Shown here piece after piece: positions 23-19,987 of a stretch of DNA of 47,736 bases. The notes under the pieces were generated by a model. The model did no database searches. It had not been told where the DNA came from and saw nothing but the letters and a program-made list of their open reading frames with translations. The DNA is from a virus (taxonomy: Duplodnaviria; Heunggongvirae; Uroviricota; Caudoviricetes). A program made the translations under genes and the position numbers. Location: IMG/VR virus record IMGVR_UViG_2778261460_000004, one strand, 5' to 3'. Position 1 is the stretch's first letter. Each line of letters starts with the position of its first letter.

Positions 23-1318
23 TTAATTTTGCGCCACCTCGTTTTGGGGCATGGTTGGGGCAAACTCGCTTAGCTGTGTATTTAGCAGGGCTACCTGTGC
101 ATTATTGTTTTCAGACATCCATTTCCCGTATACCTGAAACACCATTTGCGCATCTGCATGTCCCATCTGGTTTGCTATGAATGCCGGGTTGGCACCGGCT
201 GTCAGCGACCAGCAGGCATAAGTATGTCTCGACTGATATGATTTGCGGTGGCGGAGTCCGGCACGTTTTATCGCTGCGTCCCACATCTGCCTTATTGAGT
301 CAACGGTAAAATGGTCACCATAATTTTTTACTCTCGCTGACACTTCAGGTTGAAAAACAAAGGTGCATTTTTGTTTTTCTGTTCTGCCGAACTCTCTGAG
401 GTGAACGTCAATAATATGTTCTTTGCTCAGCCTCGTTAGTGTCATCTGACTCCTGAGAGCGTCGATTGCAGGCTTGATAAGGTAAATTACCCGATTGGTA
501 CCAGCCTGTGTTTTCGGTACCGTAAAACGATCTTTTGCTAAATTTCTCCTGATCATCATTGTTCCATTTTTCAGATCTATGTCCTCCCACCCAAGCGCAC
601 ACAGTTCACCTGGGCGAATGCCTGTATAAACAGAAACACACCATAAATTTTTGGCCTGCTGATTTCTGCAGGCGTCGATAAGACGGATAAATTCCTCCCG
701 TGAAAGAGGATCAGGAATGGTTCTTGATTCCTTTAATGGCGAGATCCCCTTAAACGGATTATCTGCCAGGTAACCGTTATCAACACCAAACTGGAACACG
801 GCGTAAAGATTTGTCATGTAATTATTTACGGTGACAGCCGATCTCCCCGGTTGCGTAACAATATAATTACTTTTGGGGATCTGGTATCCAGTAAGTAACT
901 CTTTACGTACCGCCAGCAATTTTTCTTTATTAATCGACGAGGCAAGATTTTTTTCACCGATTATGCTCAGAATATTTTTGATGACGGCACGGTACGTGTT
1001 GAGTGACGTTTTTGCGACTTCCGTTTCTTTCAGTGCCAGAAATTTTTCAGCCAGTTCCTTTATGGTTAAATCTTGTCGGGCCTCACCAAATTTTTCCAGA
1101 TTGTGTGAGGAGGGAAACTGTTTTGCATAGTCGAAAACGCCGGTTTTTATTGCATAACAAACAGAGGCGCGCAGCTCACCTGCAATGCGCCTGTTTTTTG
1201 TCGTGTCAGGAACCCCCAGATTTTCCCTGACTCTTACACCTTTATAAACAAACCAGATACGTAATTTCCCTCCATGGTTTTCCACGCCTGTCGGATATTT
1301 CATTTTAGCTTCTCTCAT
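23..1318 (-). CDS. Tyrosine recombinase / phage integrase
   Basis: 431-aa ORF with C-terminal catalytic region (R...HxxR...Y, ending ...RHTYACWSLTAGANPAFIANQMGHADAQMVFQVYGKWM) typical of phage integrases; located at prophage end next to an excisionase. True start may be the internal Met (MKYPTGV...). My label-based reading suggested a 1-nt inconsistency near 1259-1261; track coordinates are used. Confidence 0.85.
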   Translation of the reverse strand: MREAKMKYPTGVENHGGKLRIWFVYKGVRVRENLGVPDTTKNRRIAGELRASVCYAIKTGVFDYAKQFPSSHNLEKFGEARQDLTIKELAEKFLALKETEVAKTSLNTYRAVIKNILSIIGEKNLASSINKEKLLAVRKELLTGYQIPKSNYIVTQPGRSAVTVNNYMTNLYAVFQFGVDNGYLADNPFKGISPLKESRTIPDPLSREEFIRLIDACRNQQAKNLWCVSVYTGIRPGELCALGWEDIDLKNGTMMIRRNLAKDRFTVPKTQAGTNRVIYLIKPAIDALRSQMTLTRLSKEHIIDVHLREFGRTEKQKCTFVFQPEVSARVKNYGDHFTVDSIRQMWDAAIKRAGLRHRKSYQSRHTYACWSLTAGANPAFIANQMGHADAQMVFQVYGKWMSENNNAQVALLNTQLSEFAPTMPQNEVAQN

Positions 1319-1337: not shown

Positions 1338-1589
1338 TCAAGTAAGATGACGTCTTGGTCTTGCTGATGCCTGACGTTCAATCCAGCGATCAATTTCTTC
1401 CAGGTTGTAAAAGCATGGGCTGTTATCCCATGGCATACCGTCATGGGCTACATGCTTATATTCCCTTCCTTCCATAAACGATTTTTCCCTGGCTTTTTTT
1501 AGCGTTCCCTTTTTTATTCCTTTCAGCGCAATTAGCTGTTCTTCGGATACCCATTTACCGGGAGAGACAATCATGATTACTTCGCTCAT
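1338..1589 (-). CDS. Excisionase-like protein (Xis)
   Basis: 83-aa basic protein immediately upstream of int on same strand; resembles Rac-type excisionase (recalled from memory). Confidence 0.7.
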   Translation of the reverse strand: MSEVIMIVSPGKWVSEEQLIALKGIKKGTLKKAREKSFMEGREYKHVAHDGMPWDNSPCFYNLEEIDRWIERQASARPRRHLT

Positions 1590-1658: not shown

Positions 1659-4139
1659 TTAAAAATCAGCCTGACTCGGGATCAGTTTTTGTATCGTAGC
1701 TGTAACGTATTTTGCCTGGTGACGGGCGTCATCCAGTGCATTGTGGCGCACGCCTTCGAATGGAATAACGGTTCTGGCATCAAAGTCGATTGTTTTTCCC
1801 AGCTCAACGATTGTGCGTACATCGCGATCGTTGTAGTAGCGCCACGGGCAGGGGATGTCCAGACGTTCGTATGAGGTGCGCAAAATTGCGTTATCGAAAG
1901 TCGCACCATTACCCCATACCTGAACGAATTTTTCATCTGAGTATTCGTTGATGAACTCCCGAAACTGCGAAAGGGCATCCTTCAGTTTTACCTGGTCTGT
2001 TAAAATGGCAGCTCTGGCTTCACTGGACTGCTTCAGCCACCATTCGATGGTTCCACCGTCAGGAACAGCCCCTGTATTCATTGCGTCAGTCAGACTGATA
2101 ACGATATAAAATACTGGCCCGATTTCCCCTGTTTGTGGGTCGAAGAAAACCGCACCAATAACCACGATGGGCGCATTGGTGTTGGTTCCCATTGTTTCAA
2201 GGTCGATCATCAGGTGGTACCACACTCTGCTGGTGGATGTGATAACGTGATGACCGTTCACCGCAATTAAGGAATCTGCCGTCTCGCCAGTTTCATTATC
2301 GCTGGCGTGGTCCTGAGCGCTGCCAGCATTCTCCTTGTGTGGATGTTCAGCGCCTTCCATTTCCTCCGGATCATTTTCCTGAACTTCAACCTGATTCTCT
2401 TCATCGAATGTTTCCTGGTATGTTGCGTCGCCCATCACCGCACCACAATCAGGGCAGTTGCCGCCACCGAGCTGACCGCAGGCGGTGCAGACTTTTTCCG
2501 CTTCCTGTTGCGCTACCGGTTCGGATTGTTTCGTTTCTGGTTCGTTTTGTAACGCATTTGGGCTGTTTTGTTCCGCTTTTGGGTCGTTCTGTTCCGATTC
2601 TTGCTGGTTCTGGTTCACAGAATCGCGGGTTTCAATCCCCTTCACCCATTTCGGATCATTCGGGTCGCTAATCCCTGCAACAAATTCTCCGCGAGAGGCA
2701 GCAAGCAACTTATCGGCGTCAGGCTGGCTGATATTGGCTGCCTGCATAATTTTGTTTACTTCGTCAGCGGTAACTTTTACCGGCTCCGGTTGTGCGGTCG
2801 TGTCAGATGCACCAGTATTTTGTTGTGAACCTGAGTATGTGCCGTTTTTGCGGGCAAAATATTCTTCTTTCGTGATTTCAGTAGCCCCTGCAGCCAGCGC
2901 CTTATTCAGACCAGAAAGTTTGTTTGCACGACCATATTTTTCGCCATCCTTATCGGTGAAAAGGAAGTAGAACGGCCCCTCACGCTCTACAGATGGTTCA
3001 GTTTCCAGCGTGCTTTCATTTTTTTGGGTATCAGATACTTCAGTTTCCACTGCATCAGTTTGTGCTGCTGACGGCTGGAGAATATCAGTAGTGTTCTGGT
3101 CTGTTTCTTCATCCTCAAACACGCCCTTTGTCGCCAGGTATTCAGTGATGTATTTGTTCAGTGCCACGGGATCTTTGTGAATGTCGATCGGACGCTCACG
3201 GACAAGGCCAAAAATAGTCTGACGGTCGTAGCGAACGGCATCGGGTTGTTTGCGCATTGATGCGGAAATGCGCTTCCAGTCTTCGCGATCTTTGTCGATA
3301 ACTTCATTTTTTGCCCAACGATGGATGCTGCCGTCAATGTTTCCGGCATTAATATCGCCAGGCCACAGAGCGTAGGCCAGTTCTTCATCCAGCGTTTTCC
3401 ATGTCTGCTTGTATTCGCGACGAATGGCGGTAGTGGCGGGGTTGATTTTTCCTGCTGAGTTTTCAGTGTGCTGCCGGTTGACTCTGGCGCGGGCAAGATC
3501 AACAACAGACGTGTATTTCCCGGTTTCTTTGCGTTCGGCTTCGCGACGTTTTTTCCAGGTGCGTAATTCTGTCTGGATCTCAGGCCATTTTGCGCCCGGC
3601 TTACATTTATGTTTAACCCACCCGATGGCGAACAGCTTTAGTTCTGAATACATGACGTTAACTTCAGGCATTTTCATCAGTGCCTCAACGATATGCCCGT
3701 CGAATGTTGCCATGTCCTCCTGCAACAATTCCTGTGCACTAATCACCATATCAACGGTGATGTTTTCACATGTACCGAACTTAACCAGGACCGCGTTCTG
3801 TACTTCAAGGGACAGCTTGTCAAAATTGACGTTCATCGGATCGGATTCTGGTTCGACCGGAACAAAGGAAGCGCCTTCCTCATCCCAGCGGTTTTCCAGC
3901 ATATATTCGGTATCCCAGGAGTCGATGGCAGGGCGGGGCATGCCGGGTTTATCCTCGCAGACAAGAAATTTATAAGCGCAGTCCTGAGCAGCCGGATATT
4001 GCTCCAGGAATTGCCAGGTAAATTTGGCACGGGCGCGGCGTTCGTCGCCGGCTTCAATGGCAGTGGCTACAGCGACTGCACCTTCTTCCTTTATTGCCTG
4101 TTCGTCCGGAATGGCGGCGCAAATAAAGACTTTACTCAT
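1659..4139 (-). CDS. Large prophage exonuclease with C-terminal DnaQ-like DEDDh 3'-5' exonuclease domain (exodeoxyribonuclease VIII-like / YdfE-like)
   Basis: 826 aa. C-terminal motifs LMIDLETMG (Exo I, D-x-E), [12 protein letters not shown] (Exo II) and [13 protein letters not shown] (Exo III, H-x4-D). Central Cys cluster [16 protein letters not shown] (zinc-ribbon-like) and Gln/Glu-rich low-complexity linker. No RecT/Bet partner seen. Confidence 0.7.
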
Positions 4140-4219: not shown

Positions 4220-4423
4220 TTACGGTGCTGTTTTAAGTCCTGCCGGGATTTCGTTATTGTCCATGTGAATAACTTTATCGACCGGATAGCAGTTACCGGG
4301 AATTTTTTGTTCCGCTGCGGCAGCCATGCATTCTTTCATTGAGTCATGTATGCCAATAACAAGATCGACTGGTTCGCCTGTATTAAGAAAAACTGTCAGA
4401 ACGAGTGCAAATGCTGTATTCAT
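4220..4423 (-). CDS. ydfD: YdfD-like small protein (reported lysis protein of Qin)
   Basis: 67-aa product from internal Met (MNTAFALVLTVFLNTGEPVDL...KIPGNCYPVDKVIH...), hydrophobic N-terminus; start overlaps dicB stop (ATGA); synteny dicF-dicB-ydfD as in Qin. Identity from memory, moderate. Confidence 0.55.
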   Translation of the reverse strand: MNTAFALVLTVFLNTGEPVDLVIGIHDSMKECMAAAAEQKIPGNCYPVDKVIHMDNNEIPAGLKTAP

Positions 4424-4608
4424 TGCCAGCGTCCTTTTTGCATCAGGCGTAAACGGGCCAGCATTGAAAGAATGCATATTTTATTTAATAACTCCCGTTC
4501 GTGTTTTCTCTTATTAATGGCATCTTCAGTAAATGCAGGGTTACTGATTCTGACACCAATTTCAAAACAACCTTCAGACGTATTGACGTTTGGTAATAAC
4601 GTTTCCAT
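4420..4608 (-). CDS. dicB: Cell division inhibitor DicB (MinC-activating)
   Basis: 62-aa product METLLPNVNTSEGCFEIGVRISNPAFTEDAINKRKHERELLNKICILSMLARLRLMQKGRWQ, near-identical to recalled K-12 DicB; directly downstream of the DicF sequence. Confidence 0.85.
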   Translation of the reverse strand: METLLPNVNTSEGCFEIGVRISNPAFTEDAINKRKHERELLNKICILSMLARLRLMQKGRWQ

Positions 4609-4777
4609 TATCGCGTCCTCAACAATGAATTTTGTGATGCGGTGCCTGGTGCCTCCAGGTGACGTTAACCAGTTAACAATTAACGCCGGATGCAGAGAAT
4701 CCACCCATAACACTGTTTTTGGTTTTAACTGTTCCGCGTGCGCTTAGCCGCATTCACCGCATCACAAAATTCACTTT

Positions 4778-4836
4778 AAAAAGGGCGGCAGAGCAGTCAC
4801 GAAGTAAAACTGATACCGCCAAACGTCACCAGAAAA
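4778..4836 (-). ncRNA. dicF: DicF small regulatory RNA (ftsZ-targeting sRNA) with 3' terminator-like hairpin
   Basis: Reverse complement of 4784-4836 reads TTTTCTGGTGACGTTTGGCGGTATCAGTTTTACTTCGTGACTGCTCTGCCGCCC followed by a T-run, matching the recalled 53-nt DicF with about 1 mismatch; position between ydfA-type genes and dicB matches the known dicB operon. Confidence 0.75.
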
Positions 4837-6183: not shown

Positions 6184-6603
6184 CTATGATGCGTTTTGTG
6201 CTTTCTTTTTACGGATTTCTTCGTAGATCATATTGTAATACTGTTTTTTCTCTTCAAGAGTTTTTAATAAGTTATCCGCTTCACTTTCTGGCAGTTCGTC
6301 TAAGAGATCTAAAAAAATACGTTGTCGTGGCGTTAGAACCCTTGTTTCATAACTGGAGGCTGTGTTCGTTGATGATGAAACGATACCATCCATCCATCCC
6401 CGGGGTAACCCAAAGGACTCTTCGATAATCTCCACCATATCATCAGCGATCCGTTTTTTTCCCTTTTTCCCCTCTGGGTACAACATTCTTGATACATAAG
6501 AAGGCTCGCGCCCGATCTTTCTGGCCACGTTAACCGCTTTACCATCGCATTTCTCATCACGAATTTTGATGAGTTGCTGTCGTCTAAATTCATATTTGTC
6601 CAT
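6184..6603 (-). CDS. Prophage repressor, DicA/RacR-family HTH protein (cI analogue)
   Basis: 139 aa; N-terminal HTH-like segment (GKAVNVARKIGREPSYVSRML); C-terminal LPESEADNLL motif reminiscent of DicA; divergent from Cro-like gene across an operator-rich intergenic region. Confidence 0.7.
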   Translation of the reverse strand: MDKYEFRRQQLIKIRDEKCDGKAVNVARKIGREPSYVSRMLYPEGKKGKKRIADDMVEIIEESFGLPRGWMDGIVSSSTNTASSYETRVLTPRQRIFLDLLDELPESEADNLLKTLEEKKQYYNMIYEEIRKKKAQNAS

Positions 6604-9333: not shown

Positions 9334-11337
9334 ATGATTATGAGTGAAAATGATACAACCCCAAAGAAGTCTACAAGCCAGATTAACAAAGCGGTATTCT
9401 TTACATCTGCTTTGCTAATTTTCCTTCTTGTCGCCTTTGCCGCCGTATTCCCGGATGTCGCCGACAAAAATTTTAAACTACTTCAGCAACAAATCTTCAC
9501 GAATGCCAGCTGGTTCTACATACTTGCTGTGGCCCTGATTTTACTGAGCGTCACGTTCCTTGGACTCTCACGTTACGGTGATATAAAGCTGGGCCCAGAC
9601 CATGCGCAGCCTGATTTCAGCTACCACTCCTGGTTCGCGATGCTTTTTTCGGCAGGGATGGGGATCGGCCTGATGTTCTTTGGCGTTGCCGAACCTGTGA
9701 TGCATTATCTTTCGCCACCTGTCGGCACTCCAGAGACCGTTGCGGCAGCGAAGGAAGCCATGCGCCTGACGTTCTTCCACTGGGGTCTGCACGCATGGGC
9801 AATTTATGCCATCGTGGCGCTGATTCTGGCCTTTTTCAGTTACCGTCACGGTCTGCCTTTAACGCTGCGTTCTGCGCTCTATCCCATTATCGGCGATCGC
9901 ATTTACGGGCCTATAGGCCACGCGGTTGATATCTTCGCCGTGATAGGCACTGTCTTTGGCGTTGCAACATCGCTGGGTTACGGTGTATTGCAGGTGAATG
10001 CCGGTTTGAACCATCTTTTCGGCGTGCCCATCAATGAAACGGTACAGGTCATTTTGATCGTGGTCATCACGGGGTTAGCGACGATTTCGGTGGTGTCCGG
10101 CCTGGACAAGGGAATACGCATCCTGTCTGAGCTTAATCTGGGCCTGGCGGTGTTGCTCCTGGCGCTGGTCTTGTGCCTGGGTCCCACTGTGCTTCTGCTG
10201 AAGTCATTTGTGGAAAATACGGGTGGTTATCTGTCGGAACTGGTGAGTAAAACGTTCAACCTTTACGCGTATGAACCCAAGTCGAGCAACTGGCTGGGGG
10301 GCTGGACATTATTATACTGGGGATGGTGGCTTTCATGGTCGCCGTTTGTAGGTATGTTCATTGCACGCGTTTCCCGCGGCAGGACAATTCGTGAGTTCGT
10401 GACTGGCGTGTTGTTTGTTCCCGCCGGCTTTACGCTCATGTGGATGACGGTGTTTGGAAACAGCGCCATCTATCTCATCATGAACCAGGGCGCCACTGAC
10501 CTCGCCAATACCGTTCAGCAGGATGTTGCGCTTGCCCTGTTTAATTTCCTGGAGCATTTCCCGTTCTCTTCCGTGCTGTCATTCATTGCAATGGCGATGG
10601 TCATCGTCTTCTTTGTAACGTCTGCTGATTCGGGGGCAATGGTTGTGGATACTCTGGCATCAGGTGGGGTGGCAAACACGCCCGTCTGGCAGCGAATTTT
10701 CTGGGCATCGCTCATGGGCGTTGTTGCTATTGCCCTGCTGATCGCAGGGGGGCTGAGTGCGTTGCAAACCGTAACGATAGCGAGTGCATTGCCCTTCTCA
10801 GTTATCTTATTAATATCCATATACGGACTGTTAAAAGCCCTGCGTCGGGATTTGACCAAGCGTGAAAGCCTTAGCATGGCGACTATTGCTCCTACGGCTG
10901 CACGTAACCCAATTCCCTGGCAGAGAAGGTTACGCAATATCGCGTATTTGCCGAAGCGCTCTCTTGTGAAACGTTTTATGGACGACATTATCCAACCCGC
11001 CATGACGCTGGTTCAGGAGGAACTTAACAAGCAGGGAACGATAAGCCACATCAGTGACGCCGCCGAGGATCGTATTCGCCTTGAAGTCGATTTGGGCAAC
11101 GAGCTGAATTATATATATGAAGTGAGGCTTCGCGGGTATAACTCACCGACCTTCGCGCTCGCTGCGCTGGATAATGATGAGCAGCAGAGTGAACAACATC
11201 GATATTATCGCGCTGAAGTCTATCTCAAAGAGGGCGGCCAAAATTATGATGTAATGGGCTGGAATCAGGAACAGCTGATTAATGACATACTGGACCAGTA
11301 CGAAAAACACCTGCACTTCCTGCATCTGGTTCGTTAA
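9334..11337 (+). CDS. BCCT-family transporter (BetT-like choline/glycine betaine transporter)
   Basis: 667 aa; multiple TM segments; BCCT signature WTLLYWGWWLSWSPFVGMFIARVSRGRTIREF; long cytoplasmic C-terminal extension as in BetT. Confidence 0.85.
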   Translation: MIMSENDTTPKKSTSQINKAVFFTSALLIFLLVAFAAVFPDVADKNFKLLQQQIFTNASWFYILAVALILLSVTFLGLSRYGDIKLGPDHAQPDFSYHSWFAMLFSAGMGIGLMFFGVAEPVMHYLSPPVGTPETVAAAKEAMRLTFFHWGLHAWAIYAIVALILAFFSYRHGLPLTLRSALYPIIGDRIYGPIGHAVDIFAVIGTVFGVATSLGYGVLQVNAGLNHLFGVPINETVQVILIVVITGLATISVVSGLDKGIRILSELNLGLAVLLLALVLCLGPTVLLLKSFVENTGGYLSELVSKTFNLYAYEPKSSNWLGGWTLLYWGWWLSWSPFVGMFIARVSRGRTIREFVTGVLFVPAGFTLMWMTVFGNSAIYLIMNQGATDLANTVQQDVALALFNFLEHFPFSSVLSFIAMAMVIVFFVTSADSGAMVVDTLASGGVANTPVWQRIFWASLMGVVAIALLIAGGLSALQTVTIASALPFSVILLISIYGLLKALRRDLTKRESLSMATIAPTAARNPIPWQRRLRNIAYLPKRSLVKRFMDDIIQPAMTLVQEELNKQGTISHISDAAEDRIRLEVDLGNELNYIYEVRLRGYNSPTFALAALDNDEQQSEQHRYYRAEVYLKEGGQNYDVMGWNQEQLINDILDQYEKHLHFLHLVR

Positions 11338-11385
11338 CAGCAACATGCCGCCACAGAGGCGGCATTTATTTATCCCGGCTGCAAT

Positions 11386-12678
11386 ATGAGGGAATGCAGA
11401 ATGATTTCACGCTGGAAATGGATGCTGAAGCAGACATTTAAAAAACTATGGTTCAGGGCAACGTTATTCGCAATTGTCGCAATAATAACGGCCCTTTTAT
11501 CAATTCTTTTTAAATCAATGATACCTGAGTCGGTTTCCGTGAAGGTTGGTGCGGAAGCAGTCGATAACATTCTGAACATACTGGCATCGAGTATGCTGGC
11601 CGTGACCACATTTTCGCTGAGCATCATGGTCACAGCCTACGGTTCAGCCACTACTAATGTGACTCCCAGAGCTACTCGTTTAGTTGTTGAAGACGTCACC
11701 ACACAAAATGTACTGGCCACCTTCATCGGTTCTTTTCTCTTCAGTCTGGTAGGGATTATTGCCCTCAATATGGGAGCTTATGGAGAAAGGGGGAGAGTCA
11801 TTTTATTCATTGTAACACTGGTTGTCATTGCCTTAATCCTCATCACATTGCTTCGCTGGATACAGCATTTGACCTCTCTGGGGAGGGTTGGTGAGACAAC
11901 GGCAAAAGTAGAACAGGCGGCCATCGAAACATTTATTGCGAGAGCAAGAAATCCCTGTCTCGGCGGATATCCATGGCTTGAGAACAATGAACAGCCGAAA
12001 GGAACGGTTGCAGTTTATCCGAAAAAGATTGGCTATGTTGAATATGTTGATATGGTGAAACTCAGCAAGCTGCTGACCAATGATCCCCGTCATGTATACC
12101 TCGTGGCGCAGCCGGGCAGTTTCATACATCCGTCCACGCCAGTTTTGTACCTGAGTCAGGGCCAGGAGTCATCAATCAGCACCGATTTACTTGAGACGAT
12201 TATTGTCTCGGATGTACGTTCATTTGCTCAGGACCCCCGATTTTGTCTTAGCGTCATGGCCGAAATAGCCTGCCGAGCCCTTTCCCCCGCAGTGAACGAT
12301 CCTGGAACCGCCATTGATGTCATTGGCAGAGGTGTACGTATACTTTCCGCTTACGCGCAGAATAAATCTGATGAAATAGAAGTGAAATATCCTTCTGTAC
12401 ATGTTGCACCACTTCAGAATAACGATCTACTTGAAGACTTTTTCTCACCTGTTGCGCGCGATGGTGCCAGTATGAGGGAAATTCAGATAAGGGTACTTAA
12501 AGGACTGTCGATGCTGAGTAAGGGTTGGCCTGGAATTTTTGCTGAAGCCGCACAAACCCTAGCATTTGAAACATTAGAGCATGCTACTCGTGCTGACCAT
12601 ATAGATTCTGACAGATATCTAATAAAATCAATTTATTATAATTTATTTAGTGGCGAAGATTCTAATAAAAAACCATAG
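11386..12678 (+). CDS. Membrane protein with N-terminal TM helices and large soluble domain (DUF2254-like)
   Basis: 430 aa; about 4-5 hydrophobic helices in first 170 aa; about 50 bp downstream of the BCCT gene on same strand. Family assignment from memory, moderate. Confidence 0.55.
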   Translation: MRECRMISRWKWMLKQTFKKLWFRATLFAIVAIITALLSILFKSMIPESVSVKVGAEAVDNILNILASSMLAVTTFSLSIMVTAYGSATTNVTPRATRLVVEDVTTQNVLATFIGSFLFSLVGIIALNMGAYGERGRVILFIVTLVVIALILITLLRWIQHLTSLGRVGETTAKVEQAAIETFIARARNPCLGGYPWLENNEQPKGTVAVYPKKIGYVEYVDMVKLSKLLTNDPRHVYLVAQPGSFIHPSTPVLYLSQGQESSISTDLLETIIVSDVRSFAQDPRFCLSVMAEIACRALSPAVNDPGTAIDVIGRGVRILSAYAQNKSDEIEVKYPSVHVAPLQNNDLLEDFFSPVARDGASMREIQIRVLKGLSMLSKGWPGIFAEAAQTLAFETLEHATRADHIDSDRYLIKSIYYNLFSGEDSNKKP

Positions 12679-13473: not shown

Positions 13474-14532
13474 ATGGAAAGTATCGCGCTATACAACTGG
13501 GCTACAAGTGTTTTGTCTTCTATTACAGAAGATTTGAATGAACATTACTATAAAGAAATTAATGGCAGTCTCGCTTTACAATTTGAAACTACAGATATTG
13601 TGAACGCTAGAGCTTTAGTTTACTCAGAGCGTGATGAACCACCAAGGCATGCTATATCAATCACATATAAATTAATCCGATCATTATATGATGATGCTGC
13701 TGCTTTTGTAGATTATGTTCACTCTGGTAAAGATGATGAAGTTTATGATATGTGGTTTAATGGGCAAACCAACTTTAGCACTTTAAGAAATGAGTGGGAT
13801 AAAACTAATTTCACTAAAAACATTTTTCTAGCAGGTTTGACATGGGTTTTTTTTCATGAGTTAGGACACTTAACTCAGGGCCATTTATTTATAAGGAACA
13901 GGTATAGTTCCGAAATTAATGTAATGTCTGAAATTCACTTAAATAATTTATCATCAGACAATAACGATGCATCTGCCATTTGGCACGCAACGGAACTTGC
14001 AGCCGATTATTTTTCCACATACATGTGTGTAATAGAAATTGTTCGACAACTTGCCATTAATGAAGATTGCGAATTGGCAATTTGCTTTTTGACATGTGGT
14101 ATATCATTAATGTTACATCGTTTTCAAGGCGAAAAACTTTATGAGGTTCAAACAGAACCAGTTGGTACACATCCTAGGCCATTCGTAAGGCTTGAAATGA
14201 TCGTGCCTTTAATTTTTGAAATACTTTCTATTCCAAACACAGATCAACGTCGTAGTTATGTGCTTGCAGGTGGTGAATCGGCCAACAGGGTTGGACTTTT
14301 CTGGATAAGAAAGACTGGAATAATGGAGGGTATTCCTGAACATTATCTTATCGAAGGTACATTGAACCGGCCTGGAGTTGTTGAGTATTTGAGGCATATC
14401 ATTTTTATTTGGGATAGCATTTCATCTGAAATCTCTGAGATGTTCACTTTTGGCACAAAAAAAATGCTTCTTAACTTCACGAATGTACTTCGGACTACAC
14501 CGGATTTGAATGATGATACACAGGAAAAATAA
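13474..14532 (+). CDS. Putative cytoplasmic zinc metallopeptidase-like protein (HExxH motif)
   Basis: 352 aa; motif VFFHELGHLTQGH at residues 126-138 (HExxH plus downstream His); no signal peptide; AT-rich, atypical composition for the host. Confidence 0.5.
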   Translation: MESIALYNWATSVLSSITEDLNEHYYKEINGSLALQFETTDIVNARALVYSERDEPPRHAISITYKLIRSLYDDAAAFVDYVHSGKDDEVYDMWFNGQTNFSTLRNEWDKTNFTKNIFLAGLTWVFFHELGHLTQGHLFIRNRYSSEINVMSEIHLNNLSSDNNDASAIWHATELAADYFSTYMCVIEIVRQLAINEDCELAICFLTCGISLMLHRFQGEKLYEVQTEPVGTHPRPFVRLEMIVPLIFEILSIPNTDQRRSYVLAGGESANRVGLFWIRKTGIMEGIPEHYLIEGTLNRPGVVEYLRHIIFIWDSISSEISEMFTFGTKKMLLNFTNVLRTTPDLNDDTQEK

Positions 14533-15134: not shown

Positions 15135-15345
15135 TTTTATATTGGCGAGGTAACGGGAGTTAAGTAGAATGGCTGCGGGTGCTTGAGGCTATCTGTCTCA
15201 GGCATGAACACCAAAGGCAGATAGAGAAAAGCCCCAGTTAACATTACGCGTCCTGCAAGACGCTTAACATTAATCTGAGGCTCAATCTATGAACGGCAAA
15301 TCTAGGTTAGCCTCTTACGTGCCGAAAGGCAAGGAGAAGCAGGCT

Positions 15346-15501
15346 ATGAAGCAGCAAAAGGCGATGTTAATCGCCCTGATCGTCATCTGTTTAACCGTCA
15401 TAGTGACGGCACTGGTAACGAGGAAAGACCTCTGCGAGGTACGAATCCGAACCGGCCAGACGGAGGTCGCTGTCTTCACAGCTTACGAACCTGAGGAGTA
15501 A
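15346..15501 (+). CDS. hokD: Hok-family type I toxin HokD (RelF)
   Basis: 51-aa product MKQQKAMLIALIVICLTVIVTALVTRKDLCEVRIRTGQTEVAVFTAYEPEE matches recalled HokD; in-frame upstream extension (from 15289) may correspond to a mok-like frame; antisense Sok-like RNA expected upstream but not delimited. Confidence 0.85.
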   Translation: MKQQKAMLIALIVICLTVIVTALVTRKDLCEVRIRTGQTEVAVFTAYEPEE

Positions 15502-15947: not shown

Positions 15948-17003
15948 GTGCGGGTATTACTTCGACCTGTTCTGGTACCGGAACTCGGGCTGGTGATCGT
16001 TAAGCCGGGCCGGGAATCCATGCCGGTATTCCACAATACCCGGGTACTGGTGGAGCCGGAACCGAAAAGCATGCGTAATCTGCCGTCCGGGGTCGTTCCT
16101 GCCGTTCGCCAGCCGCTAGTGGAAGACAAAACATTGCTGCCGTTTTTCAGTAACGCACGGGTGATTCGTGCTGCTGGTGGTGCTGGTGCATTGTCTGACT
16201 GGCTGTTGCGCCATATTAAATCCTGCCAGTGGCCTCATGGTGATTACCATCACAGCGAAACCGTCATACATCGTTACGGTGCTGGCGCGATGGTGTTGTG
16301 CTGGCACTGTGACAACCAGTTGCGTGACCAGTCCTCCGAATCACTTGAGCAACTTGCTCATCAAAACCTGTCAGCATGGATGATTGACGTCATACGCCAT
16401 GCAATGAATGGCACGCAGGAGCGGGAGTTATCGCTGGCTGAATTATCCTGGTGGGCGGTCTGCAATCAAGTGGCGGACGCGCTTCCGGAGGCAGTATTAC
16501 GTCGTTCTTTGGGGTTACGTGCGGAAAAAATCCGCTCCTTGTACCGCGAAAGCGACATCGTACCGGGAGAGCAGACCGCCACCAGCATACTGAAGCAGCG
16601 CACAAAAAATCTTGCGCCGCTGCCTCACGCCCACCAGCAAAACCCGCCACAGGAAAAGACGGTGGTCAGCATTGCCGTTGATCCGGAGTCACCGGCTCAG
16701 TATCTCCAGCGCCAGAAACCACAACGGGAAGAGATGCCTGTATACACGCGCTGGGTAAAAACGCAGAAATGCATGACGTGCGGTAATCAGGCAGATGATC
16801 CGCATCACATCATTGGTCATGGACTGGGAGGGATGGGAACAAAGGCTGATGATTTGTTTGTTATTCCGCTGTGCCGTAAATGTCATAACGAACTGCACGC
16901 CGGGGTAAAAGATTTTGAAGAAAAACACGGCAGCCAGCTGTTGTTGCTGATTCGTTTTTTAATGCACGCGAGAAATTCGGGTGTCCTGAAGTGGAAAGCA
17001 TGA
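15948..17003 (+). CDS. ydfU: YdfU-like DUF968 protein with HNH-like Cys/His cluster
   Basis: 351 aa; C-terminal CMTCGNQADDPHHIIGHGLGGMGTKADDLFVIPLCRKCHNELH motif; nin-region position upstream of rusA and Q. Confidence 0.75.
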   Translation: MRVLLRPVLVPELGLVIVKPGRESMPVFHNTRVLVEPEPKSMRNLPSGVVPAVRQPLVEDKTLLPFFSNARVIRAAGGAGALSDWLLRHIKSCQWPHGDYHHSETVIHRYGAGAMVLCWHCDNQLRDQSSESLEQLAHQNLSAWMIDVIRHAMNGTQERELSLAELSWWAVCNQVADALPEAVLRRSLGLRAEKIRSLYRESDIVPGEQTATSILKQRTKNLAPLPHAHQQNPPQEKTVVSIAVDPESPAQYLQRQKPQREEMPVYTRWVKTQKCMTCGNQADDPHHIIGHGLGGMGTKADDLFVIPLCRKCHNELHAGVKDFEEKHGSQLLLLIRFLMHARNSGVLKWKA

Positions 17004-17369
17004 ATGACTGAACGCATAGAATTTGTTTTGCCTTACCCGCCGACGGTGAACACCTACTGGCGACGTCGTGGCAGTACATATTTTGTATCAAAAGCCGGTG
17101 AGCGTTATCGCCGTGATGTGGCGCTCATTGTTCGCCAGCAGCGACTGAAATTGAACCTGTCCGGAAGGCTGGCAATAAAAATTATTGCAGAGCCACCGGA
17201 TAAACGTCGTCGTGACCTGGACAATATCCTGAAAGCACCACTGGATGCGCTGACGCATGCCGGACTTCTCATAGACGACGAGCAGTTTGATGAAATCAAT
17301 ATTGTGCGCGGTCAGCGCGTTCCTGGGGGGCGGCTGGGCGTGAAGATTTACAAAATTGAGAGTGAGTGA
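17004..17369 (+). CDS. rusA: Holliday junction resolvase RusA
   Basis: 121 aa; RusA-like motifs PPTVNTYW and RRRDLDNILKAPLDALTHAGLLIDDEQ. Confidence 0.85.
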   Translation: MTERIEFVLPYPPTVNTYWRRRGSTYFVSKAGERYRRDVALIVRQQRLKLNLSGRLAIKIIAEPPDKRRRDLDNILKAPLDALTHAGLLIDDEQFDEINIVRGQRVPGGRLGVKIYKIESE

Positions 17370-17920
17370 TCGTAAATATGATATACCCGGAAATTACAGG
17401 CAAAAGCGGCGAGCATTTACGTCTTAAACCGCTGGAAGCCGTCTGGATCCAGGGGAAATTACGGATGTGGGGGCGTTGGTCGTATATAGGTGGTGGCAAA
17501 ACAGGAAATATGTTCAATCAGTTGCTGGCATCCAAAAAACTGACAAAAACCGCGATCAATGAAGCCCTGCGTAGAATCAGGGAGTCAGGGATTGATAAAC
17601 CAGAGCTGGAAGCATTCTTGCGAGAGATGATCGCTGGCAGACAGAAGAGCTGGTTGTCTCACTGTACTGATGCAGAGGCGTTACGCATTGATGGGGTGAT
17701 AAGTAAAGCGCTTGCACGTTATCCTGGATTGATTGATATCCTGCGGCAAAGGTACGAAGGGCGGGGGATGAGTAAACGCAAAATGGCTGAATTGTTGAAT
17801 GAGGTTCACCCTGAGTGGTGCTATGCAACATGCCGCAATCGTATAGATATGTGGCTGAGAATAGCTGAGTTTATTCTGTATCCACTGATGCGAGATGCAT
17901 TTTCTTTTACTGACGCTTAG
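17366..17920 (+). CDS. Late gene antiterminator Q (phage 21/Qin QuuQ type)
   Basis: 184 aa directly upstream of a promoter-plus-terminator region and the late/lysis genes; overlaps rusA stop. Confidence 0.7.
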   Translation: MIVNMIYPEITGKSGEHLRLKPLEAVWIQGKLRMWGRWSYIGGGKTGNMFNQLLASKKLTKTAINEALRRIRESGIDKPELEAFLREMIAGRQKSWLSHCTDAEALRIDGVISKALARYPGLIDILRQRYEGRGMSKRKMAELLNEVHPEWCYATCRNRIDMWLRIAEFILYPLMRDAFSFTDA

Positions 17921-18578: not shown

Positions 18579-19628
18579 ATGGCCAATACTGTAAAAATAT
18601 CCAGTTGTGAGTTAATCAACGCTGATTGCCTGGAATTTATCCAGACCTTACCGGAAAATTCTGTCGATCTGATAGTCACAGACCCGCCATACTTTAAAGT
18701 GAAGCCCGAGGGCTGGGATAACCAGTGGAAGGGCGATGATGATTACCTGAAATGGCTGGACCAGTGTCTGGCGCAGTTCTGGCGGGTACTGAAGCCTGCC
18801 GGAAGTCTTTACCTGTTCTGTGGTCATCGCCTGGCATCTGACACCGAAATCATGATGCGTGAACGCTTTAATGTGCTGAACCACATTATCTGGGCGAAGC
18901 CGTCCGGACGCTGGAACGGGTGCAATAAGGAAAGTCTGCGGGCGTATTTTCCGGCAACAGAGCGCATTCTGTTTGCAGAACATTATCAGGGACCGTATCG
19001 CCCGAAAGATGATGGCTATGTGGAGCAGGGGCGCGAGCTAAAACAGCACGTCATGGCCCCGCTGATTTCTTACTTTCGTGATGCGCGTAAATCACTGGGA
19101 ATAACGTCAAAACAGATAGCGGAAGCCACCGGAAAGAAAAACATGGCTTCGCACTGGTTTGGTACCAGTCAGTGGCAGTTACCGAACGAGGGTGATTACA
19201 ACAAATTGCAGGCGTTGTTTGCGCGTGTTGCGGCAGAAAAACATCAGCGCGGGGAACTGGAAAAGCCACACCACCAGCTGGTCAGCACATACAGTGAGCT
19301 GAACTGGCAGTATACGGAACTGCTGAGTGAATATAAAAATTTGCGGCGGTATTTCGGTGTGACGGCGCAGGTTCCGTACACCGATGTCTGGACGCATAAA
19401 CCGGTGCAGTACTATCCAGGGAAACATCCGTGCGAAAAACCGGCAGAAATGCTGCAGCAGATAATCAACGCGAGCAGTCGTCCGGGAGACCTGGTTGCAG
19501 ATTTTTTTATGGGTTCAGGTTCAACGGTAAAAGCGGCGATGGCACTGGGGCGTTGTGCGATTGGTGTTGAGCTGGAGACCGGACGTTTTGAACAGACAGT
19601 CAGGGAAGTTCAGGATTTAATCGTTTGA
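18579..19628 (+). CDS. DNA methyltransferase, beta-class (DPPY motif IV before FxGxG motif I), N6-adenine or N4-cytosine; orphan
   Basis: 349 aa; LIVTDPPYF near N-terminus and DFFMGSGST near C-terminus; no restriction endonuclease gene adjacent. Confidence 0.85.
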   Translation: MANTVKISSCELINADCLEFIQTLPENSVDLIVTDPPYFKVKPEGWDNQWKGDDDYLKWLDQCLAQFWRVLKPAGSLYLFCGHRLASDTEIMMRERFNVLNHIIWAKPSGRWNGCNKESLRAYFPATERILFAEHYQGPYRPKDDGYVEQGRELKQHVMAPLISYFRDARKSLGITSKQIAEATGKKNMASHWFGTSQWQLPNEGDYNKLQALFARVAAEKHQRGELEKPHHQLVSTYSELNWQYTELLSEYKNLRRYFGVTAQVPYTDVWTHKPVQYYPGKHPCEKPAEMLQQIINASSRPGDLVADFFMGSGSTVKAAMALGRCAIGVELETGRFEQTVREVQDLIV

Positions 19629-19677: not shown

Positions 19678-19753
19678 GGCCCTTTAGCTCAGTGGTGAGA
19701 GCGAGCGACTCATAATCGCCAGGTCGCTGGTTCAAATCCAGCAAGGGCCACCA
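19678..19753 (+). tRNA. tRNA-Ile2-like (anticodon CAU; ileX/ileZ-like), could formally be Met
   Basis: 76 nt GGCCCTTTAGCTCAGTGG...CTCATAA anticodon loop...TTCAAATCC...AAGGGCCACCA; one mismatch in anticodon stem. Confidence 0.8.
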
Positions 19754-19754
19754 A

Positions 19755-19831
19755 TCGCCACTAGCTCATCAGGAAAGAGCGTCAACCCTTTAAGTTGAGT
19801 GTGCGAGGTTCGAGTCCCCGGTGGCGGTCCA
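19755..19831 (+). tRNA. tRNA-like gene, atypical (anticodon loop CCUUUAA, possibly Lys-UUU or a degenerate Arg tRNA)
   Basis: Acceptor stem TCGCCAC/GTGGCGG, T-loop TTCGAGT, 3' CCA present; C at position 33 and one T-stem mismatch make the assignment uncertain. Confidence 0.5.
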
Positions 19832-19833
19832 GT

Positions 19834-19909
<76 letters not shown>

Positions 19910-19912
19910 TAT

Positions 19913-19987
<75 letters not shown>

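Follow-up and report, generated by a model that had tools for sequence, protein, structure and literature searches.

What does a lambdoid prophage do with a large exonuclease gene at the usual site of the lambdoid recombination module, if no annealing protein can be recognised along with it? The question is posed by the IMG/VR record IMGVR_UViG_2778261460_000004 (Caudoviricetes; 47,736 nucleotides (nt), the whole stretch analysed, henceforth called the window), a lambdoid prophage in which a gene read leftward at 1659..4139 specifies a protein of 826 amino acids (aa). A first-pass annotation, made from the letters alone, had singled out this gene as an oddity. We find that it is ydfE, a prophage gene of E. 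coli, in its intact state. The answer towards which we lean, as a tentative one, is that the protein serves in lytic growth as a DNA 3'-5' exonuclease, mounted on a chassis that elsewhere bears either a Rad52-type annealase or a RecE-type nuclease accompanied by RecT, and that it processes 3' ends without a phage annealase. The gene and the sections of its product are the following.

1659..4139, minus strand: YdfE-type exonuclease gene, complete, 826 aa (ATG start; stop codon at 1659-1661; supported by the full-length PHROG 2082 match and by database homologs)
3525..4139, minus strand: scaffold domain A, aa 1-205, alpha/beta followed by a helical sub-domain (AlphaFold2 (AF2) model, predicted local distance difference test (pLDDT) ~90; PHROG 5943)
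3120..3422, minus strand: scaffold domain B, aa 240-340, helical (AF2, pLDDT ~88; distant similarity to the middle of RecE)
2835..2978, minus strand: scaffold domain C, aa 388-435, a small beta-hairpin/helix unit, GPFYF...GRANK...EEY.ARK (AF2, pLDDT ~85; conservation)
2277..2720, minus strand: linker block shared with RecE, aa 474-621, Q/E/N-rich and length-polymorphic (identity to Rac-SA53 RecE)
2445..2489, minus strand: Cys4 knuckle C551-x2-C554-x7-C562-x2-C565, aa 551-565 (sequence; pLDDT 60-76)
1698..2216, minus strand: DEDDh 3'-5' exonuclease domain, aa 642-814 (Pfam PF16473, conservation, AF2, Foldseek)

The gene has a GAGG ribosome-binding site 10 nt 5' of its ATG, and its product matches the PHROG 2082 profile collinearly (1717 bits; aa 1-826 against model positions 1-823 of 823). 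The nearest database homologs are E. coli proteins of 98% identity, labelled either "exonuclease" or "3'-5' exoribonuclease". Homologs up to 98% identical are annotated with the Pfam families YdfE_N (PF27430), YdfE_C (PF27432) and Rv2179c-like (PF16473); the YdfE_N and YdfE_C assignments are those of the precomputed Pfam annotation of these homologs, both families postdating the Pfam copy used for our own scans. Compared with the YdfE family, with which it shares the full-length PHROG 2082 match and the same three Pfam families, the window protein shows no substantive difference, and the operon order (ydfA-like, dicF, dicB, ydfD-like, exonuclease) is the same, too. In a K-12-like laboratory strain, the gene is reduced to its first 767 nt with an IS2 element next to it, a fragment which, going by the K-12 map, we take to be the Qin ydfE pseudogene; the K-12-like copy is thus cut off, whereas the window copy is intact. 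Of 5426 complete E. coli genomes, 3504 (~65%) have the gene at a coverage of at least 80%, frequently more than once and with up to 10 matching places per genome. Among the INPHARED phages, it is carried by Evi, mEp460_ev081, Tritos and HannyBb (the last a plaque-forming phage from bird faeces), and it also occurs in PPompW prophages. A gene that is extremely common and already catalogued is no discovery in itself, and its framing as an oddity does not hold for what is one of the commonest E. coli prophage genes, in a family with entries in both Pfam (YdfE_N/YdfE_C) and PHROGs (2082).

The C-terminal domain is a DnaQ-like DEDDh exonuclease of the Rv2179c/DexA family, with an RNase H-like fold. 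Pfam PF16473 (Rv2179c-like) matches aa 642-814 at 229 bits, far over the cut-off of 27 (E=3.2e-68), and the catalytic residues are D646 and E648 (motif I), D749 (motif II) and H799-x4-D804 (motif III). In 57 diverse homologs, D646 and H799 are invariant and E648, D749 and D804 nearly so; in the window protein, the DEDDh residues line up with the motif of T4 DexA. With this Pfam match and these five conserved residues, the description in the first-pass annotation of a large protein in which a C-terminal DnaQ-like DEDDh domain is fused to a long N-terminal region stands. In the AF2 model of aa 540-826, the exonuclease domain reaches a pLDDT of ~97, and a Foldseek search with it returned T4 DexA on top (8kel, E=5.8e-12), followed by RNase T, oligoribonuclease (Orn), REXO2 and ERI (~1e-6 for the first three). 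By sequence, T4 DexA was the sole PDB match of the protein (E=1e-8, 24-30% identity).

DexA (PDB 8KEL, 8KEN) and the window domain have the same fold and catalytic residues, but DexA is a stand-alone protein of 227 aa, whereas the window domain is the C-terminal quarter of 826 aa, and the equivalent of DexA W152 is not conserved in YdfE-type proteins. Rv2179c of M. tuberculosis, a small stand-alone cellular exoribonuclease and the founder of PF16473, belongs to the same Pfam family as the window domain, which scores far over the gathering threshold, but it was not retrieved by the PDB sequence search using the window protein. T4 DexA is a DNA exonuclease favouring single-stranded DNA (PMC12153337). 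By homology, the predicted nuclease would be metal-dependent and of 3'-5' polarity, and its substrate would be DNA instead of RNA.

What our analysis adds to the known family is the anatomy: the three domains of the N-terminal scaffold, the linker between them and the nuclease and, in relatives, the exchange of effectors on the same scaffold. An AF2 run for aa 1-460, based on an alignment of 19 distantly related sequences, yielded the domains A, B and C, parted by disordered stretches. Domain B is partially matched by NCBIfam PRK09709 and has 23% identity to RecE residues 311-367 in BLASTP; domain C is kept in three types of fusion, i.e., those that end in a DEDDh nuclease, in a PD-(D/E)XK nuclease or in an annealase (alignment and loci L007-L011). 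Foldseek searches of the scaffold against PDB and BFVD returned nothing at E<=0.001, so the scaffold fits no solved fold. We considered that an annealing protein could be hidden in the N-terminal region and rejected this as unsupported: the same searches (PDB, BFVD) gave no Rad52-, RecT- or Erf-like match.

The linker aa 474-621 aligns with residues 471-611 of Rac-SA53 RecE (1048 aa) at 76% identity over 148 aa (BLASTP), and the underlying DNA is 86.9% identical to Rac-SA53 recE. The block takes in the Cys4 knuckle as well as the acidic stretch. As modelled for aa 540-621, the linker is mostly disordered, with a pLDDT <50 around the knuckle, while the knuckle itself is predicted with moderate model confidence (about 60-76); homologs differ by indels at aa 521-548. 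The internal Cys4 cluster that had been noticed before is present (C551, C554, C562 and C565; window 2445-2489). It is invariant in 13 close homologs and retained, with substituted flanks, in eight representatives of 50%-identity clusters and also in Rac-SA53 RecE. However, it is not universal: most non-Escherichia relatives carry G-x-G-[IRM]-F-[SD]-x-x-[GS]-L-[MFA] and then [ND]VQMEE. These short linker motifs were derived from window aa 474-621 and the aligned regions of P0133, P0140, P0141, P0148, P0156 and L007; conserved as they are, they look like docking motifs for some partner. In the Escherichia linker, the Cys4 knuckle stands in place of the first short motif, and EEMEGAEHP occurs as the second. 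The cluster, lying within the block shared with RecE, is part of a common linker module and no special feature of the window protein, which corrects the first-pass annotation.

Outside the linker, BLASTP against Rac-SA53 RecE showed a faint similarity in domain B and no significant alignment between the RecE C-terminus and the window protein (best E=0.035, 30 residues). The NCBIfam model for RecE, PRK09709, gave 272 bits, below its equivalog cut-off of 1269, and aligned over model positions 243-603 only. The Pfam scan of the protein found neither a DUF3799/PDDEXK domain, at the place of which the DEDDh domain sits, nor the RecE N-terminal Exonuc_VIII domain (PF06630). The domain search proposed earlier (Pfam, RecE-like) has thus found an Rv2179c-like domain and a RecE nuclease that is replaced, not retained. 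Full-length homology to a characterised RecE-family protein, which would have told against the earlier description, does not exist here: the homology to RecE comprises the non-catalytic middle and the linker only. Rac RecE (exodeoxyribonuclease VIII) is like the window protein in where its gene lies, directly ahead of xis-int in the early-left operon, and in its overall plan of a long N-terminal region, a disordered linker and a C-terminal nuclease (PMC11611040). It differs by its PF06630 N-terminus, which the window protein lacks, and by its PD-(D/E)XK 5'-3' nuclease with recT after it, whereas the window has a DEDDh 3'-5' nuclease without recT after it.

The exchange of parts becomes apparent among the 11,878 relatives found by searching 1.84 billion cluster representatives. 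Most of these are stand-alone exonucleases of ~185 aa, with 45-50% identity to the C-terminal domain of the window protein. Three large proteins (P0124, P0125 and P0134) carry both PF06630, the N-terminal domain of RecE, and this DEDDh domain in one chain. Conversely, P0138 (L015:768-4354) combines YdfE_N/YdfE_C with a PD-(D/E)XK domain (DUF3799) and is followed by a RecT gene, stop and start overlapping, the product of which has 39% identity to Rac RecT (E=1e-61). In a third group, domain A is accompanied by B and/or C and the protein ends in a 277-aa domain labelled "exonuclease" by PHROGs 2489 and 7838; members occur in Erwinia (L007), Pantoea (L009 and L010) and Pseudescherichia (L011) and include gp07 of Pectobacterium phage ZF40, in addition to P0137, P0143, P0146 and P0262.

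From sequence comparison, we conclude that this third C-terminal domain is an annealase, which PHROGs appear to have mislabelled. It bears the Rad52 signature KKSLTDAIKKALSLLGFSADVWLGLYD, and its top Pfam match is Rad52_Rad22, albeit sub-threshold (E=0.003). The conclusion is drawn because a profile search with the domain retrieved stand-alone Pseudomonas homologs at ~1e-59 (40-45% identity over most of the domain), which are named "Rad52/Rad22 family DNA repair protein" by NCBI, several of them with PF04098. The profile search against PDB sequences found nothing, and hhalign against an approximate sequence of human RAD52 gave a weak result (E=0.019, probability 2.4%). These fusions are ~720-760 aa long (e.g., L007:6701-8974 in Erwinia and L013:3684-5849, ZF40 gp07), and their deposited label is also "exonuclease". 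A Sipho_Gp157 gene lies directly after the annealase fusion in the two loci checked for it (L007 and ZF40).

The type of effector was compared with gene order in eight scaffold-bearing loci; a search for related loci, with an alignment of domain A, returned only nine. The sole PD-(D/E)XK locus of the eight (P0138/L015) is also the sole one with a RecT gene next to it. In the four DEDDh loci (the window, L014, L016 and L017), the next gene is xis or int, and there is no RecT; the proteins of L014, L016 and L017 consist of a RecE N-terminus plus DEDDh, one of them in a Rac-type kilR-ydaE context. A scan with Rac RecT of three annealase-fusion loci (L007, L009 and L010) found none. The sample is small, but the pattern is consistent: the DEDDh domain takes the place of both the RecE nuclease and RecT, and the lack of a partner thus goes with the architecture instead of being a chance feature of this locus.

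In the window, the leftward early operon consists, in order, of ydfA-like (DUF1391), DicF, DicB, YdfD-like (DUF1482), exonuclease, xis and int.

23..1318, minus strand: integrase (open reading frame (ORF); RefSeq annotation of matching genomes)
1338..1589, minus strand: excisionase, directly 3' of the exonuclease gene, at the place that recT has after recE in Rac (Pfam DUF1233, PHROG 539; Rac gene order)
4220..4713, minus strand: YdfD-like (DUF1482) and DicB, the upstream operon genes (Pfam, NCBIfam, PHROGs)
4420-4608, minus strand: DicB, cell-division inhibitor (the 62-aa family profile corresponds to residues 36-97 of the listed 97-aa ORF, which over-extends DicB)
4783..4834, minus strand: DicF sRNA, in the same leftward operon (Rfam RF00039, 75 bits)
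6184-6603, minus strand: DicA-like repressor, after which come rightward cro/cII/O-like genes

No other early-left gene stands between the exonuclease gene and xis-int in the window, in phage HannyBb and in three other loci; in phage Evi, an unnamed ORF of 252 bp and a gene of a mobile element come after it. Among the ORFs scanned in the early, nin and lysis regions of the window (Pfam, NCBIfam, PHROGs), there was no member of the RecT, Bet, Erf, Sak/Sak4 or Rad52 families, nor did we recognise an anti-RecBCD family among them; phages Evi and HannyBb have no recognised annealing protein either. The partner reported as missing is therefore indeed missing from the ORFs scanned, xis and int being directly downstream. 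The locus differs from a two-component recombinase (Red, RecET) in having no annealing gene and a nuclease that, by homology, would be 3'-5'. A consensus scan, which is weak evidence, revealed no promoter-like site between DicB and the exonuclease gene; the gene, the last of a leftward operon, would probably be expressed in lytic development only. According to 10.1101/2023.04.14.536235, dicF and dicB are toxic on overexpression.

The window has nine Chi sites against 1.7 expected from shuffles, six of them on the plus strand (all positions: 2229, 7229, 16173, 16579, 16631, 17961, 18456, 19271 and 21606). They span 2.2-21.6 kb, that is, the right arm of the linear phage map with the early, nin and lysis half; the late half has the terminase from ~23.8 kb and tail fibres up to ~46 kb, and its head and tail genes (23.7-46 kb) are free of Chi. 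One site is in the exonuclease gene itself.

2229..2236, plus strand: Chi site GCTGGTGG within the exonuclease gene (at a near-equivalent place in HannyBb and Evi, 561-577 nt from the 3' end of the gene)

Evi has 13 Chi sites in 32 kb (10 on one strand) and HannyBb seven, all of them outside the structural genes. A class of lambdoid phages without a Rec module is Chi-rich, and one phage of the class, LLS, grows better with RecBCD (Zheng et al. 2025, PMC12315714); the window prophage fits this Rec-less, Chi-rich class. The same paper (Zheng, Casjens, Davidson, Amundsen and Smith 2025) mentions "sporadic" DnaQ-type nuclease genes near int in Rec-less lambdoid phages, but holds no analysis of the DnaQ-type proteins or their scaffold.

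The explanation that we favour draws on what could be observed directly, namely, the domain identities and catalytic residues, the modular swaps, the gene order, the lack of a recognised annealing protein and the enrichment in Chi; from these, we infer the enzymology and the biological role of the protein, including a role in recombination or concatemer formation. The protein would be a modular product of the early-left (pL) operon, in which domains A, B and C are tethered to a Mg2+-dependent DEDDh 3'-5' exonuclease by ~200 residues, a largely disordered acidic linker with a small Cys4 knuckle. It may have originated as the DEDDh version of a RecE-like chassis, with a 3'-5' exonuclease in place of the PD-(D/E)XK 5'-3' nuclease plus recT of Rac, and would process DNA 3' ends during lytic growth, with no phage annealing protein involved. 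This could happen in two ways. Either 3' tails are trimmed or blunted, by which the phage ends would become substrates for the RecBCD-Chi-RecA pathway, with RecBCD loading and acting at Chi; or 3' strands are resected, upon which the 5' cohesive ends would anneal on their own, as they do with XthA. XthA is a 3'-5' exonuclease that joins ends without an annealase in RecA-independent in vivo cloning in E. coli (PMC6379578). Full-length RecE, unlike its nuclease domain alone, boosts linear-linear recombination (Fu et al. 2012, as cited in PMC11611040), which suggests that the N-terminal regions of RecE/YdfE-type proteins may deal with DNA ends.

A bolder version, to which we give only limited credence, is that the YdfE/RecE scaffold is a general recombination hub that would bring interchangeable effectors to one target, either phage DNA ends or the replisome. 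The effectors, in this equally doubtful extension, would be a Rad52-type annealase or one of two nucleases, either 5'-3' and paired with RecT or 3'-5', and the DEDDh version would provide an annealase-independent 3'-resection route to concatemers or recombination in the commonest lambdoid prophages of E. coli.

Several points weigh against a DNA 3'-end processing role in lytic growth. NCBI names homologs as 3'-5' exoribonucleases, and the Pfam description of PF16473 has the founder Rv2179c as an exoribonuclease. 3'-5' DNA exonucleases usually inhibit homologous recombination instead of promoting it (Lovett 2011, as cited in PMC12315714), and the authors of PMC12315714 do not count the DnaQ-type genes near int as members of the Rec module. 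The link of nuclease type with recT is drawn from no more than eight inspected loci. Over the whole prophage, the density of Chi (one per 5.2 kb) is not above the E. coli average, so the sites could reflect the amelioration of a resident prophage. Finally, a literature search on ydfE found no functional study.

The label of exoribonuclease leads to one of the alternatives, in which the protein would act as a 3'-5' exonuclease on RNA, e.g., on host or phage transcripts or on the 3' ends of sRNAs. Pfam describes PF16473 as a 3'-5' exoribonuclease domain, the fold neighbours behind DexA are RNase T, oligoribonuclease and ERI, and the gene lies in the dicBF operon. We nevertheless think this improbable: by sequence and by fold, the nearest characterised relative, DexA, is a DNA exonuclease, and on the same scaffold and linker, the domain is interchangeable with a RecE-type DNA nuclease and with a Rad52-type DNA annealase. 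Moreover, the same DEDDh fusion occurs in Rac-type operons with kilR and ydaE but with neither dicB nor DUF1482; the dicBF context is therefore not required. The kinship with DexA can also be read as nucleotide scavenging, one of the two roles of DexA (PMC12153337), whereby host DNA fragments would be degraded to feed phage replication. Among the window ORFs scanned, however, no host-DNA endonuclease was seen that could supply the ends, and a 640-aa scaffold common to recombination proteins is needless for scavenging. Breakdown of the host chromosome is not known from temperate lambdoid phages, and scavenging is the alternative to which we attach the least weight.

A role in prophage defence or superinfection exclusion would liken the protein to EcD, an HREX enzyme: with its DexA-like domain, it would attack the modified (5hmC-type) DNA of incoming phages and leave that of the host intact. 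EcD, a DexA homologue of E. coli, digests T4 DNA and protects cells (PMC12153337); the window domain is in the same family as EcD and DexA, and the gene is extremely common among prophages. The window protein is not EcD itself, an identity that we rejected on the termini encoded by the primers of the HREX paper (MIDTET... and ...TIPETYD), which are absent from it. The position of DexA W152, which recognises 5hmC, is Y, C or H in the YdfE-type family, while the equivalent of DexA D90, lost in the EcD type, is present as D (the alignment stops short of D169). PADLOC yielded no match for the exonuclease gene, on the basis of which we discarded a known defence system. The exonuclease gene is also downstream of dicF and dicB in a probably repressed operon, with no promoter-like site between DicB and its start. 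With these results taken together, we regard a defence role as having a slim chance. The anti-restriction function suggested in the first-pass annotation was favoured by no tool result of the analysis.

A slimmer chance still is given to counter-defence, either by the removal of immune nucleic acids or signals (e.g., retron msDNA or DNA/RNA 3' ends used in defence) or by the restraint of host recombination or degradation at phage ends. Rac RecE has been reported to interact with retron defence via msDNA degradation. Early expression, which the operon position implies, would suit this role, and the usual inhibition of homologous recombination by 3'-5' exonucleases fits restraint at phage ends (Lovett 2011, as cited in PMC12315714). 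On the other hand, the protein has no recognisable inhibitor domain, and its scaffold is without a match in PDB or BFVD. The processing of DNA 3' ends in lytic growth thus remains the reading that we prefer, with the tentativeness stated at the outset.

The remainder of the region between the replication and the lysis genes holds the following features.

9334-12678, plus strand: two large cargo genes for membrane proteins, next to come after the replication genes (BCCT betaine/carnitine/choline transporter, 667 aa; DUF2254 protein, 430 aa)
13474-14532, plus strand: 352-aa ORF without a Pfam or PHROG family, matched weakly by Lit in PADLOC (E=1.5e-5), possibly defence cargo
15177-15501, plus strand: hok/sok-type toxin-antitoxin locus (Rfam sok, 110 bits; overlaps a 70-aa ORF)
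15948-17920, plus strand: nin-region genes, namely, an HNH/DUF968-type nuclease (PHROG 96), a RusA resolvase and a Q-like antiterminator
18579-19628, plus strand: DNA methyltransferase, 349 aa, after the nin region
19678-19987, plus strand: four tRNA genes (Met-CAT, Lys-TTT, Thr-TGT and Gly-TCC) between the DNA methyltransferase and the lysis genes

As useful leads, the locus offers the chassis with swappable effectors, the annealase fusions under an apparently wrong label and the connection to phages that are Rec-less and Chi-rich. Ever since RecE was first described, its N-terminal region has been without an assigned function (PMC11611040); one chassis with three DNA-end effectors now gives a concrete handle on that region. 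If the enzyme does join ends by 3' resection, it might also prove useful in practice, for assembling DNA in vivo. For the phages themselves, the function of this gene would help to explain how those that are Rec-less and Chi-rich handle their DNA ends.

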